A stretch of 64,000 nt of DNA from a virus. Taxonomy: Duplodnaviria > Caudoviricetes. The position numbers and the translations under genes are program-made. Positions within the stretch are counted from its first letter, which is position 1. Every line of letters starts with the position of its first letter. Where the stretch lies: the IMG/VR virus record IMGVR_UViG_3300032216_002106, positions 12,059 to 76,058 of that record; one strand, given 5' to 3'. The notes beneath the pieces were generated by a model. That model had not been told where the DNA came from. It did not search any database and was given only the letters and a program-made list of their open reading frames with translations. This document shows, one piece after another, positions 7,375 to 22,245 of this stretch.

Positions 7375-7400
7375 AGCAGTTTAACGTCTTGCTTAGGACG
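7375..7400 (-). ncRNA. Motif A pseudoknot leader, copy 1
   Basis: CGUC-CUAAGCAA-GACG-UUAAAC-UGCU. Confidence 0.7.
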
Positions 7401-7407
7401 ATAGCTA

Positions 7408-7662
7408 CTATTTATTTACTAGTGCAGCAAGTTCTTCTGCAGTGCCTACCTTAGTTATTGACAGCTCTTGACTAAAACAACTTCTTGAAGATACCAATAA
7501 ATCGTATACAACATTGTCGTAGTTAACACGAGCCTTACGTGTACCTGTGTAATTGTTTATTAATGAATGTAATTTCCATTCTTCTGTATGTAATTGGTCT
7601 TTTAATTTGTTAATCTTTTGTTTTTGATTAAACAATTGACGAAGCGTTGGTGATTTAGCCAT
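7408..7662 (-). CDS. Hypothetical protein (probable start MAKSPTLRQ)
   Basis: Start overlaps the stop of the SWIM gene. Confidence 0.55.
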   Translation of the reverse strand: MAKSPTLRQLFNQKQKINKLKDQLHTEEWKLHSLINNYTGTRKARVNYDNVVYDLLVSSRSCFSQELSITKVGTAEELAALVNK

Positions 7663-8596
7663 TGGTTGTTTTATAAGAAAGTTGAGGAAGGCTTGTGCCT
7701 GGAAATGGAACAAACCCCGCACTCAACATAGCGTCAAACAGATCCCATGCATCATCTGCAGTGTAGTGTTCCTGTGGTTTGTACGTACGCCAGTGAGACA
7801 TAGGTGCCATAGATCCTGACTTGGTATACAAGACAAGGAACCGACCCTTTGACTTATGGTCTTCTGGTGGAGCGTACCACCAAGCACATGCGTTATCAGG
7901 GGCAGACCCCCTGTACTGATCACGTACTTCAGAACGTTTTACCAATAGCTCACGATACTTCTTGAACCAAGTCAAGTGAATGCACCATGGCTTATAGCCT
8001 TGGATCTCTTGCTGGAACTCAGATAGATTTGTCAATTGCTGCTGGAATGAACCACAAGAACAATAAGGTTCTTTAACCTTTTGTTGTGCAGTAACTTCTT
8101 CTAAATCAGAGTCCATGTCTACTTCCTCATCAGAATCATAGAATCCTTCTGGTGCAATCAAGTGACCAAGATCTGTATGCTCACTTTGCAGCATAGCTTT
8201 AAGCTTGTCTTTACTCTTAAGGTAAATGAACTTATCAATCCATTCCCTTTGTAGTAACGCTTGACCAGTCTTGTGGCTCAGCTGATGTTGATAGTGCCAA
8301 CCTTTTAACATTACGTAAGAGTTATTATGCCAGATACCAGGACCTCTATAGTTAGGACCAAGGTATGCAAAAAAGTTTTTAAGACGACCAGTAAATTGCT
8401 GGTACGCATTAATCACATCTTGCCTAGGCACTAATAGCTCATTGCCATCTTGATGTACTACAACAATATTGTTATCACGTAGATAGATCCCGCTTACAGT
8501 GGTTTCATCAAACTCTGGTAGTGCACGTTTAATGTTGCTAATAGAATAGATTTGTTTTTGTGCAGAATTAAATTGGTCTTGAATTAGATTGTTCAT
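7655..8596 (-). CDS. SWIM zinc-finger protein
   Basis: YCSCGSF...PWCIHL (CxC-Xn-CxH). Confidence 0.7.
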   Translation of the reverse strand: MNNLIQDQFNSAQKQIYSISNIKRALPEFDETTVSGIYLRDNNIVVVHQDGNELLVPRQDVINAYQQFTGRLKNFFAYLGPNYRGPGIWHNNSYVMLKGWHYQHQLSHKTGQALLQREWIDKFIYLKSKDKLKAMLQSEHTDLGHLIAPEGFYDSDEEVDMDSDLEEVTAQQKVKEPYCSCGSFQQQLTNLSEFQQEIQGYKPWCIHLTWFKKYRELLVKRSEVRDQYRGSAPDNACAWWYAPPEDHKSKGRFLVLYTKSGSMAPMSHWRTYKPQEHYTADDAWDLFDAMLSAGFVPFPGTSLPQLSYKTTNG

Positions 8597-8617
8597 TAGT
8601 TAGAATTGAGTTGGTGA

Positions 8618-8833
8618 TTAGATGAACAGGTCGTCCTGCTCTGCCGGAATTTTAGCAGAGCTAGGGGCAGAGTCATAGGCTCTCTTACCAATTTTTAACA
8701 AACCATAGGCAAGCATCCCCCAGGTAATAGGGTTAGCAAGTGATGCCGCAAGGAATGTTCCCCCTACGGCATAGGGTGCCGTGTGTTTGATAGCAGCCTT
8801 TAGTTTTGTGTTCATAGTGGTAGCATTGAGCAA
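8618..8833 (-). CDS. Small hydrophobic protein
   Basis: APYAVGGTFLAASLANPITWGMLAYGLL. Confidence 0.5.
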   Translation of the reverse strand: MLNATTMNTKLKAAIKHTAPYAVGGTFLAASLANPITWGMLAYGLLKIGKRAYDSAPSSAKIPAEQDDLFI

Positions 8834-8847
8834 AGCTGTTCAGACTT

Positions 8848-9108
8848 ATGGAAATCAAAGTCATGCCCTTAAGCAAATTAGAACTTGACCCAGGGTTAGC
8901 TGATTTGTTTTGGAAAGAAAAAGTACAACGAGAGATTAACGAAAATACCTCAGTCAATGAACTAAGGCAGTACGCATCTTTGTTGTTGTCACTTGCAGTA
9001 CAACGTCAAGGAATAATAAAAGGACTTGCAAAAGAATTGCTCACTATCAAACATCTATTGATAGATGATAGTGAGCTTGCAAATCCTGAGATTACACCAG
9101 AGAGTTAG
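8848..9108 (+). CDS. Hypothetical protein (lone plus-strand gene in the early arm)
   Basis: 86-aa helical ORF filling the gap between minus-strand genes. Confidence 0.55.
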   Translation: MEIKVMPLSKLELDPGLADLFWKEKVQREINENTSVNELRQYASLLLSLAVQRQGIIKGLAKELLTIKHLLIDDSELANPEITPES

Positions 9109-10175
9109 ATGAGTGAATCGTCTTCTCCAGTTACAGGATCCCTGGCACTAGGCAAAGCAGTTATGTCAACTTCTTTGGTGTTACGTAGTTCAGGTAGTAT
9201 CTCTACTCCTTCTCGTATTCCATAAGCACCACCAAGCTTTGCAGCATCCTGCTTAGCATGTTGATTGATATAGTCCTGGAACATTACTTGATATTTCCAA
9301 GTTGATTCTCGATCTGCATCAGGAATACTCATTGCATTTAATGATTCGACTGCTGCTTCTTGTGTGCTGTAATCAGGGATATCAAACCCTTCAATAGCAC
9401 ATATCTCAACGTTATTAGCGCCGCGCATGTCATTAACAAGCTGAGGTGTAAATACTGTTGTTGCATAGAACTTTTCATTGAATGCCAATGGAATCTCTGA
9501 GTCAAGTGCTTTGCTCAAGCACTTAGACATTTCTTTTTCATACATTTTAATCTTTTCAGCTGCATCAGTACCATTAAGTCCTTTCAAGGTAAGGACCATA
9601 GGCAGCTTATGTGCCCGTTGATTTTCTGTAGTAAGAATAAAAATTAAGTACTTGGTACGTACACTGTACTTACGTTTGTACATTTCGCCTTTACTGTTAG
9701 CAAGATCAGCAGCAACCTTGTCATTATCCCAAAGAGACTTGACATCATCATTATCAAACGTGCCAATCGTTTGCCTCATTCCCGTAGTTTCCTCAACCAT
9801 AAGGGGAGAACGTAGAAGGACTTGAACTCTAGGCTGAGTGAAATTGAGTCCTTCTTCGATTGAAGTATTGGGAGCCATACCAAAAGTTTGCTTGTAGTTC
9901 CAGATAACTGAACCTTTAGCAAATTGATCTTCAGTTGCGCTCCATCCGCAAGTATCAAGGTCTGAGTTCCGCACGAACCAACCTCTTGTTTTAGACTTGT
10001 TGAGGGGTTGGATCGTGACAAAGTTTTGATAGCCCGAAACAAATTCTTTAGATTGAAATAGCGCAAAAGATTCAATGCCACGTGTTGTAATAGCAGAGGA
10101 TTTTTTCATAGCCATGGTCGGAGTTAATTTCGTAGTAGGTGAGTTGGTCGTGGTGTCAAACAAAGTGCTAGTCAT
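9105..10175 (-). CDS. DUF5895-like protein next to SSB (possible recombination/annealing factor)
   Basis: HKLPMVLTLKG motif recalls cyanobacterial DUF5895; acidic C-terminus; ATG chosen 20 nt after motif A copy 2. Confidence 0.5.
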   Translation of the reverse strand: MTSTLFDTTTNSPTTKLTPTMAMKKSSAITTRGIESFALFQSKEFVSGYQNFVTIQPLNKSKTRGWFVRNSDLDTCGWSATEDQFAKGSVIWNYKQTFGMAPNTSIEEGLNFTQPRVQVLLRSPLMVEETTGMRQTIGTFDNDDVKSLWDNDKVAADLANSKGEMYKRKYSVRTKYLIFILTTENQRAHKLPMVLTLKGLNGTDAAEKIKMYEKEMSKCLSKALDSEIPLAFNEKFYATTVFTPQLVNDMRGANNVEICAIEGFDIPDYSTQEAAVESLNAMSIPDADRESTWKYQVMFQDYINQHAKQDAAKLGGAYGIREGVEILPELRNTKEVDITALPSARDPVTGEDDSLI

Positions 10176-21066: not shown

Positions 21067-21067
21067 C

Positions 21068-21271
21068 TTAGATACCTTCAATACGTGGATGAATGTTGTC
21101 ATCGTTCATATTTGTCATGGTAAATTTCTCACCAGTGACAGGATCAATGAAGCCTCCAACGAATCCAATCCCATTACGGTCAGCGGATTCTTTCATTAAT
21201 GCTACAAACCTCATCGCTTCAAGACGACGTAAGCTTGTGGCATCAGGCACAGTCAGATCAGAGTTAGACAT
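21068..21271 (-). CDS. Hypothetical protein
   Basis: 67-aa ORF. Confidence 0.6.
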   Translation of the reverse strand: MSNSDLTVPDATSLRRLEAMRFVALMKESADRNGIGFVGGFIDPVTGEKFTMTNMNDDNIHPRIEGI

Positions 21272-21303
21272 TGGATGGGGAAGTTAAGGTTTGATTAATG
21301 AAC

Positions 21304-21612
21304 TTAGGATTTTACTAGATTCTGTTTGACATCCATACTAAATATCATATCTGCATCAGTCGGATCTTCATATCCCATAACATCAATAGGATCAATGTCA
21401 GGAAAGCAGACCGGCTGGTCGAATTGAACATCGACCAAGACTGTGAGATACGCAGTGGATAGGTCAACCCAATCTTCGGTCAACCAATTGATAGCATGTT
21501 GTTTGTTCACCAGGTATACGGTGCGATCATGCCACACGCCCTCGCATTTAATCTTGTAGTCAATGATGGCACCGAAGTGCGTACCGCTGATAGGCATTGG
21601 AGCATCAGTCAT
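21304..21612 (-). CDS. Hypothetical acidic protein
   Basis: 102-aa ORF. Confidence 0.6.
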   Translation of the reverse strand: MTDAPMPISGTHFGAIIDYKIKCEGVWHDRTVYLVNKQHAINWLTEDWVDLSTAYLTVLVDVQFDQPVCFPDIDPIDVMGYEDPTDADMIFSMDVKQNLVKS

Positions 21613-21648
21613 TAGATTCCGTGGTGATGGTGGACAGGGGTGAGGGGA

Positions 21649-21927
21649 TTATGCGAAAGGCGTAAAGCCTGGTGCATCTATTAACTCTTGTAGTGTCCAT
21701 ACAGCATTTGCTGCTAGCTTACTGAACACAACTTTGTTATTAGTGTTATCAGTGACATATTCATCTGACTGATCTTCTATTACTTCACAGCCTGCCTCCT
21801 CTAGCTCATCGCAAAACTCATCCCATGCCATGTACTTGCCATAGACATGAGCGTATCTGCCCGTGGCATCTGCCACTAATGCAACATAGTGATTCATTGT
21901 ACTCATTTGTGGGGTGATTGTACTCAT
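21649..21927 (-). CDS. Hypothetical acidic protein
   Basis: 92-aa ORF, coupled to upstream stop. Confidence 0.6.
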   Translation of the reverse strand: MSTITPQMSTMNHYVALVADATGRYAHVYGKYMAWDEFCDELEEAGCEVIEDQSDEYVTDNTNNKVVFSKLAANAVWTLQELIDAPGFTPFA

Positions 21928-22196
21928 TACTTGTGTAGCTCTTGGTGTTGTTGCCAGTGAGCAGCATGGATCTCTGCTGCTGTTACAGCGGATTCACCTC
22001 CGGTGTTGTCATAGAGGTACTCAGGTGTTGGGTCATAGCCCGTTACCTCTTGTAGTGCATCTATGCACTCCGAGATAGTATCCAGCACCCACTGTGGTGC
22101 AGAATACATTTGGTCTTTGGCTTCCTCCTGTTTGAGGACAGCGTTCATTTCTTTGATCCAGCGTTCGCATGCGCACTCTGGAGTCTTGTCTGTCAT
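21927..22196 (-). CDS. Hypothetical acidic protein
   Basis: ATG 21 nt after motif A copy 8. Confidence 0.65.
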   Translation of the reverse strand: MTDKTPECACERWIKEMNAVLKQEEAKDQMYSAPQWVLDTISECIDALQEVTGYDPTPEYLYDNTGGESAVTAAEIHAAHWQQHQELHK

Positions 22197-22217
22197 GAGT
22201 TGAATTGCGGTGGGACA

Positions 22218-22245
22218 CAGGCAGTTTAACGTCATGCCTAGGACG
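22218..22245 (-). ncRNA. Motif A pseudoknot leader, copy 8
   Basis: CGUC-CUAGGCAU-GACG-UUAAAC-UGCCUG. Confidence 0.7.

Follow-up and report, generated by a model that had tools for sequence, protein, structure and literature searches.

A widespread, uncatalogued, coremin-like RNA pseudoknot between the genes of phages

The stretch of DNA analysed here (the window) comprises 64,000 nucleotides (nt), bases 12,059 to 76,058 of the 76,058-bp IMG/VR virus record IMGVR_UViG_3300032216_002106, which has a completeness rating of 95%. The genome is that of a cyanophage resembling Synechococcus phage S-EIV1 from an arctic lake, its sole near relative among cultured phages. Its minus strand carries eight copies of a compact H-type RNA pseudoknot (hereafter the knot), and the same covarying motif occurs in more than 300 phage and prophage loci and is widespread among unrelated phages. 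The knot is a widespread, uncatalogued phage RNA that resembles coremin, a motif compared with it below. We propose, with not quite even confidence, that it would act as a protein-independent roadblock to machines moving 5'→3', stabilizing and insulating the cistron downstream of it.

The fold was examined by covariation: in scans of IMG/VR, each pattern kept one part of the motif constant while the rest could vary. For stem 2 (S2), the scan fixed stem 1 (S1) and loops 1 and 3 (L1 and L3) and left six loop bases free, and S2 proved to be 94.7% paired over 700 cells from 140 distinct sequences, whereas slid registers gave 27-44%. There were 131 cells with a double change, and none of 500 shuffles reached the observed value. 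The pairs found include GGACA/UGUCC, GGUCA/UGACC, GAGUA/UACUC, UGAGA/UCUCA and AAACA/UGUUU. The converse scan, with S2 and L3 fixed and S1 free, found S1 paired in 95.8% of cells (slid controls for both stems, 22-56%), with variants such as CGAC/GUCG, AGAC/GUCU, GGAC/GUCC, CCAC/GUGG and CGCC/GGCG. S1 and the two outer pairs of S2 together hold 189 double-change cells; many of the instances come from related freshwater phages, so that site counts are not counts of independent events, though the stems differ among them. The closing C-G pair of S1 is near-constant (143 of 150), and CGUC/GACG is the commonest form of this stem across phages (51 of 168). A first-pass annotation of the window had proposed an H-type pseudoknot on the strength of one compensatory change and had named covariation across homologs among its checks: both stems covary, and the compensatory changes number in the hundreds.

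Which nucleic acid carries the fold can be read from the imperfect pairs. G·U pairs outnumber A·C mismatches by 131 to 26, about 5:1, and this excess indicates that selection for the fold acts on the sense strand alone and hence on RNA. The compact H-type RNA pseudoknot is real and sense-strand specific.

The consensus is NNNC-CY-NNGCA-U-GNNN-UUAAAC-UGCNN, often followed by A. It describes an S1 of 4 bp closed by C-G, a CU L1, an S2 of 5-6 bp whose A-U pair at the junction is conserved, and a junction of a single base. The second base of L1 is U in 297, C in 24 and G in none of 321 copies; the first two bases of L3 are U in 288 and 303 of these, the AAAC that follows being set by the descriptor. 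The A-rich L3 (UUAAAC) presumably sits in the minor groove of S1. A purely structural descriptor, free of sequence, performed no better than its control (12,263 versus 12,086 matches).

The second body of evidence is position. Among 336 non-redundant instances, the largest class has the next same-strand open reading frame (ORF) starting 20-30 nt downstream of the knot. The stops of upstream ORFs peak 5 nt (66 cases) and 6 nt (28 cases) before S1; only 7 lie at 4 nt or less, and about 12 ORFs run on and stop within the knot. Of 321 loci, 103 have a stop triplet at precisely this 5-nt distance, compared with about 20 for other offsets. On the other side, only 6 starts are found at 15-19 nt, and then 18, 26, 14 and 26 at 20, 21, 22 and 23 nt (84 in all). 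The mRNA entry channel of the ribosome lies about 11 nt past the first P-site base, which is 5 nt beyond a stop codon in the A site, and an initiating 30S subunit covers about 20 nt upstream of the AUG. We infer that two ribosome footprints flank the knot as closely as they can without unwinding it. Packing just outside both footprints implies that selection keeps the knot folded on translated messages.

The eight copies in the window follow this pattern. All lie on the minus strand and are 27-29 nt long; each is given below as S1-L1-S2-L2-S1-L3-S2, where L2 is the junction base, and with its flanks:

Copy 1, 7374..7400, minus strand: CGUC-CU-AAGCA-A-GACG-UUAAAC-UGCUG; stop 7 nt before S1; AUG 20 nt after the knot, opening a 37-aa ORF.
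Copy 2, 10196..10224, minus strand: CGUC-CU-CAGGCA-U-GACG-CUAAAC-UGCCUG, S2 of 6 bp; stop 6 nt upstream; AUG 20 nt downstream, DUF5895 gene (9105-10175).
Copy 3, 11065..11091, minus strand: CGUC-CU-AAGCA-A-GACG-UAAAAC-UGCCC, only 3 canonical S2 pairs; stop of the family-A DNA polymerase gene exactly 5 nt upstream; AUG 20 nt downstream, ssb (10244-11044).
Copy 4, 14062..14088, minus strand: CGUC-CU-AAGCA-U-GACG-UUAAAC-UGCUA; stop 6 nt upstream; AUG 23 nt downstream, GP88-family gene (13256-14038).
Copy 5, 14294..14320, minus strand: sequence identical to copy 4; no upstream stop distance; AUG 22 nt downstream, 58-aa ORF (14095-14271).
Copy 6, 18990..19016, minus strand: core sequence as in copies 4 and 5; stop exactly 5 nt upstream; AUG 30 nt downstream, 567-aa PcfJ-like gene (17256-18959).
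Copy 7, 19670..19698, minus strand: CGUC-CU-CAGGCA-U-GACG-UUAAAC-UGCCUG, S2 of 6 bp; stop 11 nt upstream; AUG 21 nt downstream, 70-aa ORF (19436-19648).
Copy 8, 22219..22245, minus strand: CGUC-CU-AGGCA-U-GACG-UUAAAC-UGCCU, an extra U·G pair possible; stop 28 nt upstream; AUG 22 nt downstream, 89-aa ORF (21927-22196).
ORF behind copy 1, 7240-7353, minus strand: 37 aa, hydrophobic, starting MFDFLFPIV, below the threshold of the ORF list.
Gp157-like gene, 6505-7233, minus strand: follows the 37-aa ORF.

The first-pass annotation had placed all eight copies within 1-2 nt of these positions and had described their details correctly: S1 is invariant (CGUC/GACG), L2 is U or A, L3 is UUAAAC, CUAAAC or UAAAAC, copy 3 has an S2 of 3 bp, and an A-to-G change accompanied by U-to-C marks copies 2, 7 and 8. 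That is the only compensatory event within this phage and could be explained by duplication. Allowing up to 3 mismatches, a 25-mer consensus matches six of the copies (0.00 expected from 100 shuffles); the two with a 6-bp S2 have a one-base insertion and were recovered with a 13-mer core and the structural descriptor. No further copies were found in the whole 76,058-bp genome, and plus-strand matches to a relaxed descriptor are at the background of shuffles.

Bases 1-25 kb of the window form an early/replication arm running leftward on the minus strand, with genes for a family-A DNA polymerase, SSB, DUF5895, GP88-family, PcfJ-like and ferritin-like proteins; a primase-helicase and an exonuclease are encoded just beyond the window edge. 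In this phage the knot precedes replication/recombination genes and small ORFs. Of the downstream genes named in the earlier annotation, those for DUF5895, SSB, GP88 and a PcfJ-like protein are upheld, whereas the Gp157 assignment is a weak match only (E 2.4e-4, below the Pfam cutoff). The 37-aa ORF behind copy 1 probably encodes a real small membrane protein; the syntenic copy in S-EIV1 likewise precedes a similar small ORF, starting MFEFIAS. Consensus scans of positions 7000-26000 returned promoter-like sites more rarely than in shuffles, and terminators at background level. A single match to a sigma-70-like consensus (TTGAAG, 17 nt, TATACT; 11115-11143, minus strand) lies some 24 nt upstream of copy 3, inside the polymerase gene at its 3' end, and could give rise to a separate ssb transcript starting just before that copy. 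The terminator scan also flagged a GC-rich 7-bp hairpin with the loop UGCAAAC and no U-run at 24165-24185 (minus strand).

Beyond the window, a core pattern of the knot occurs in at least 116 IMG/VR stretches, nearly all with the full covarying motif, and some contigs have 3-6 copies (L169, L025, L027, L036; such numbers are our labels for loci). S-EIV1 has at least 7 syntenic sites, before ssb, DUF5895-like, PcfJ-like and GP88-like genes, and its copies show compensatory differences such as UGUC/GACA and GAGUA/UGCUC. BLAST matched about 80 Staphylococcus phage records; in the two of them that were inspected, the phietaviruses B166 (L304) and phage 80 (L305, 2501-2527), the knot lies between a Mu-F-like head morphogenesis gene and a GP20-type scaffold gene. 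Another small hairpin stands between the knot and the scaffold ribosome-binding site in these two phages. The B166 record labels the knot site a BPROM 'promoter', as do, according to the hit table, those of B236, phiJB and B122. The knot is also found 5 nt before an annotated pseudo-tRNA in the autographivirus Nostoc phage NMeng1 and after the holin gene of Geobacillus phage GR1. Tandem copies occur on L049, L316, L328 and L174; the last of these (L174:4618-4798, contig GVMAG-S-1091232-186 of a giant-virus bin of metagenome-assembled genomes, MAGs) has three copies about 75 nt apart, and an ARAGORN tRNA search of this region was empty.

In GTDB the pattern is present in MAGs or isolates of Patescibacteria, Planctomycetota, Omnitrophota, Desulfobacterota, Bacillota, Cyanobacteria, Chloroflexota, Bacteroidota and Actinomycetota, in a few Gamma- and Betaproteobacteria and in one Woesearchaeota bin, assignments which may include mis-binned phage contigs. 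Host sampling gave 3 of 300 Bacilli and 0 of 300 Gammaproteobacteria (small numbers), and a BLAST search for near-identical sequences in 5,426 E. coli genomes, a narrow query, returned no match. Rfam 15 cmscan searches of window positions 7000-23000, of a 311-nt sub-window and of the Staphylococcus phage 80 site gave only chance matches off the motif. Searching the literature by sequence word returned primers only, and we found no paper on the knot in phages and none that connects coremin with phages, a comparison that does not extend to 10,006 unnamed csRNA candidates (PMC10690425).

The genes beside the knot are diverse. Among phages that use Shine-Dalgarno sequences, head scaffolding proteins account for 4 of 10 randomly sampled downstream genes, the others including DNA polymerase, glycosyltransferase and kinase genes. 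The knot is followed by a tRNA-Arg(CCU) gene, at a distance of 2 nt in L045 and L083 and of 36 nt in L116. Both neighbours are co-oriented with the knot in 201 cases, the upstream neighbour is divergent in 33 and the downstream neighbour is convergent in 14: the knot is found at the head of operons more frequently than at their end.

About 27 bacterial loci (Planctomycetota, Omnitrophota, Clostridia and others; L314:1588-1708, also L312, L342, L373, L309, L396, L411 and about 20 other genome contigs) combine the knot with a tiny Shine-Dalgarno-led ORF for a peptide M..YMLRPVAHCKEGC..SWA, for which Pfam and NCBIfam offer no credible family. In the majority of them the stop, UGA or UAA, falls inside the knot and the last residues are encoded by S1, L1 and S2, so that translation there must unwind the knot; the arrangement suggests a leader-peptide switch. 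In L314 an Rrf2-family regulator gene and SufC/SufBD genes lie downstream of the tiny ORF, and a palindromic operator overlaps the promoter. Here the ORF may be a Cys-rich leader-peptide switch for Fe-S assembly genes, and this chromosomal suf leader shows that the knot is used outside phages too. A conserved GCUGC-GUAG stretch upstream, considered as a possible tmRNA, is the 3' end of the tiny ORF; ARAGORN found no tmRNA in 20 loci.

What might such an element do? The reading we prefer, reached by analogy and held at a little under even confidence, concerns decay as well as translation. Each copy would be transcribed within leftward polycistronic early/replication messages, would fold as an H-type pseudoknot and would stay folded between ribosomes. 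It would mechanically halt machines travelling 5'→3', in a direction-specific manner and without any protein: mainly the exoribonuclease RNase J and RNase E scanning from a 5' end (5' monophosphate), and secondarily ribosomes that slide or read through. Decay or interference begun in the upstream cistron would then stop at the knot, and the cistron behind it would become a separately stabilized and insulated expression unit. This reading draws on the similarity to coremin, on the host independence and tandem occurrence of the knot, on its enrichment before scaffold genes and on the surplus of operon heads. Hosts of many phyla imply that the knot needs a universal partner or none. The scaffold protein is the product of a highly expressed late gene. 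RNase E and RNase J are both present in cyanobacteria, and the messages of cyanophages are known to require protection from the former.

Several observations weigh against a 5'→3' roadblock. A few copies occur in Gamma- and Betaproteobacterial MAGs, and these bacteria generally lack RNase J. Where a tRNA follows the knot by 2 nt (L045, L083), an RNase P cut at the tRNA leaves the knot on the upstream fragment, which fits a role at 3' ends better. The narrow range of distances to the AUG, 20-23 nt, would likewise suit a function in initiating translation. For resistance to Xrn1, coremin itself depends on a second hairpin (hp2) and on a G as second loop base, both of which the phage knot lacks; frameshift pseudoknots of the ordinary kind and of similar size fail to stop Xrn1 (PMC10321173).

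If the knot did block RNase J, RNase E scanning or ribosomes, it would constitute a new and very common layer of phage expression control that takes 27 nt, needs no protein and works in many hosts, and it would explain how one transcript yields different amounts of its products, for instance of scaffold and capsid versus portal. A broader claim, which we hold a shade more tentatively still, is that the knot may be the first class of exoribonuclease- and ribosome-resistant RNA native to phages and bacteria: a protein-free roadblock with which phages of many phyla would divide long messages into separately stabilized units, and which would be related to coremin by descent or convergence, and in its Watson-Crick form would reveal the true coremin fold. 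Bacterial viruses would thereby be tied to the biology of exoribonuclease-resistant RNAs (xrRNAs) in eukaryotic RNA viruses, and synthetic biology could gain a compact part for stabilizing or insulating mRNAs. The knot merits an entry in a catalogue of RNA families, being at present unlabelled or, in some Staphylococcus phage records, mislabelled 'promoter'.

Two alternatives build on the same spacing, and both are unlikely enough that we do not prefer them, though neither is far-fetched. By the first, the knot would bound the 5' edge of an unstructured, G-poor landing pad of about 20 nt and, by barring pairing with upstream coding RNA or by touching the 30S platform, would promote Shine-Dalgarno-independent initiation. 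Starts do begin sharply 20-23 nt after the knot, as in 7 of the 8 window copies, and 79 of 86 have no Shine-Dalgarno-like sequence; the 30 nt that follow contain 15% G and little structure, with a mean minimum free energy of -2.1 kcal/mol (-1.7 for shuffled and -3.4 for coding sequence). However, compaction of the genome against the ribosome footprint explains this spacing equally, the distance from knot to start is 25-120 nt in phages that use Shine-Dalgarno sequences, and the knot also precedes tRNAs. Coremin, moreover, inhibits the passage of ribosomes rather than promoting it (PMC10520033).

The second places the function at the end of the upstream gene, where the knot would be a 3' cap against 3'→5' exonucleases or a stop for post-termination and read-through ribosomes, a reading of similarly low probability. 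It would account for the sharpest positional signal of all, the stop at precisely 5 nt before S1 (103 of 321 loci, versus about 20 elsewhere), for the 14 convergent downstream neighbours, for the tRNAs 2 nt away, where RNase P would turn the knot into a 3' terminus, and for the roughly 27 bacterial loci whose tiny ORF stops close to the knot and mostly inside it. It leaves unexplained why 33 copies have no co-oriented upstream gene, why the enrichment is ahead of scaffold genes and not behind abundant ones, and why L1, L3 and the junction are so strictly conserved when any hairpin could serve as a cap; the coremin analogue, too, blocks enzymes that run 5'→3'. As a general intrinsic terminator the knot was rejected, since a T-rich run follows only 43 of 321 copies.

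A self-cleaving ribozyme, or a signal for a universal endoribonuclease (RNase E, Y or P) that cuts polycistronic messages, would suit an element so small and host-independent, with more than 12 near-invariant bases, lying between co-oriented genes, beside tRNAs and in the scaffold-upstream niche of known cis-RNA motifs. We nevertheless consider it improbable: nothing is conserved past the 27-nt knot that could form a catalytic pocket or cleavage site, Rfam gave no match to pistol, twister, hatchet, hammerhead or HDV ribozymes, and the closest known relative acts mechanically rather than catalytically.

The remaining explanations are those offered by the first-pass annotation, which had inferred a post-transcriptional regulon, bound by phage SSB or ribosomal protein S1 or sensing a small molecule, with a DNA promoter as the alternative. 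Its post-transcriptional element survives in the broad sense, but the regulon is unlikely, as unrelated genes and phages carry the knot. A protein operator governing replication genes, in the manner of T4 gene 32, is very unlikely: the layout resembles it, ssb has a copy in front of it and none of the eight lies outside the replication arm, yet phages with no obvious proteins in common (Staphylococcus phietaviruses, a Nostoc autographivirus, Geobacillus phage GR1) carry the knot, as do a giant-virus bin and the suf leader, and elsewhere it stands before scaffold genes, polymerases and tRNAs. Less probable again is an aptamer for a small molecule or ion, although size, H-type topology and conserved loop bases recall the compact pseudoknots of the preQ1-I and SAM-II riboswitches: there is no Rfam match (E up to 10), the downstream genes have no common metabolic theme, and an expression platform is missing, the start being at least 20 nt away, the spacer unstructured and a terminator usually absent. 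The diversity of downstream genes speaks strongly against both a metabolite-linked riboswitch and a regulon of one phage protein. A promoter is barely credible, even though TAAACT (UAAACU in the RNA) fits the TAnnnT form of a -10 box for the host polymerase or one modified by the phage, transcription from about 7 nt downstream would yield 18-22-nt leaders, and B166 carries its BPROM annotation: both stems covary, G·U exceeds A·C 5:1 on one strand only, the stop-codon exclusion zone matches the ribosome footprint, suf leaders have a promoter and a translated ORF upstream of the motif, no conserved -35 or -10 element precedes the knot, and the larger ORFs scanned in the window, in agreement with the earlier annotation, include no match to RNA polymerase or sigma factor families.

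Among known systems, two share a genomic setting with the knot. The RNA motifs GP20-a and GP20-b (Rfam RF02991 and RF03003) and the csRNAs that Fremin et al. 2023 (PMC10690425) report upstream of GP20 occupy the same niche just before scaffold (GP20-family) genes, but the published lengths of 107 and 72 nt and the structures differ, and cmscan gave no match at the Staphylococcus phage 80 site (L305, 2400-2700; E up to 10). The gene 32 operator of T4 and T2 is likewise a leader pseudoknot followed by an unstructured stretch up to the ribosome-binding site, and one copy here precedes ssb; it is, however, private to one gene and one protein, whereas only 1 of the 8 knots in the window stands before ssb.

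Other systems are close in architecture or in proposed action. The luteoviral -1 frameshift pseudoknots of beet western yellows virus (BWYV) and potato leafroll virus (PLRV) have a short S1, a 2-nt L1 starting with C, an extruded junction U and an A-rich L3 ending in AAAC, so that the resemblance seen in the first-pass annotation holds for the compact architecture. They differ in lying inside overlapping ORFs, 5-8 nt after a slippery heptamer, whereas the phage knot follows stop codons (mostly by 5 nt or more), lacks a slippery site and is succeeded by a gene with its own AUG; the BWYV knot is not resistant to Xrn1 (PMC10321173). Flaviviral and plant-virus class 3 xrRNAs share with the knot a proposed protein-free, directional mechanical block and occurrence in tandem (xrRNA1 and xrRNA2), but they are ring-forming folds of 45-70 nt, with three-way junctions or 9-bp pseudoknots, and show no sequence similarity to it. 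A flaviviral xrRNA blocks bacterial RNase J1 in vitro (PMC5760640), which indicates that such blocks are not enzyme-specific.

The nearest comparison is coremin, GUCCGAAGACGUUAAACUAC, an element of plant, fungal and picorna-like RNA viruses: a 3-4-bp hairpin, (C)GUC/GAC(G), whose loop is YGAD or YGNNAD but can be longer, a spacer UUAAACUAC that is conserved, and a second hairpin, hp2, that is obligatory (PMC6546385, PMC10520033, PMC10321173). According to the same papers, it stalls Xrn1, blocks scanning ribosomes and stimulates -1 frameshifting, and its structure has not been solved; they mention neither phages nor bacteria. Both elements prefer (C)GUC/GAC(G) in S1, which in the knot is CGUC/GACG in all eight copies and covaries elsewhere. 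In both, the loop starts with C (C or U in coremin), loop and spacer form a pseudoknot (proposed for coremin), and the sites are untranslated or intergenic, sometimes a few nt after an ORF. The UUAAAC of the coremin spacer appears to recur in the knot, its UU prevailing where these two bases were left free and its AAAC being fixed by our descriptor. They differ in the loop, CU-NNGCA-U with U or C as second base in the knot where coremin requires G; in S2, which in the knot is a canonical, covarying helix of 5-6 bp and in coremin a non-canonical contact with CUAC; and in the end of the spacer, where UGCNN, canonically paired with the loop, takes the place of the UAC in UUAAACUAC. The knot also has a bulged junction base and no hp2, the next 30 nt being no more structured than shuffled sequence, and its hosts, those of DNA phages, are bacteria. 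To our knowledge, bacteria have no Xrn1.

Two further forms bear on this comparison. On L049 (IMGVR_UViG_3300002920_000014, minus strand), a sequence GUC-CGAAAU-GAC-G-UUAAAC-UAU recurs in tandem, about 30 nt after each of two Watson-Crick copies; its CGAAAU hexaloop fits the YGNNAD of coremin, these two are the only such copies in 3.3 Mb of loci, and the hexaloop copy behind a Watson-Crick copy links both forms. The other is xrRNA-WCC, which comprises Watson-Crick variants of coremin selected in vitro as well as Sanxia picorna-like virus 5, in which a 3-bp Watson-Crick S2 keeps the activities of coremin and the knot without hp2 suffices for ribosome stalling and frameshifting (PMC10321173). 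As is the case with the phage knot (94.7% paired), it combines the S1 and spacer of coremin with an antiparallel Watson-Crick S2. Its S2 has 3 bp, its L1 is a single G and it needs hp2 for Xrn1 resistance, whereas the phage knot has an S2 of 5-6 bp, an L1 of CU or CC and a bulged junction base. Hundreds of natural covarying sequences define a pairing at which coremin mutagenesis had only hinted. Judged by its sequence features, the knot is not a member of coremin as currently defined, but coremin is the closest element known.

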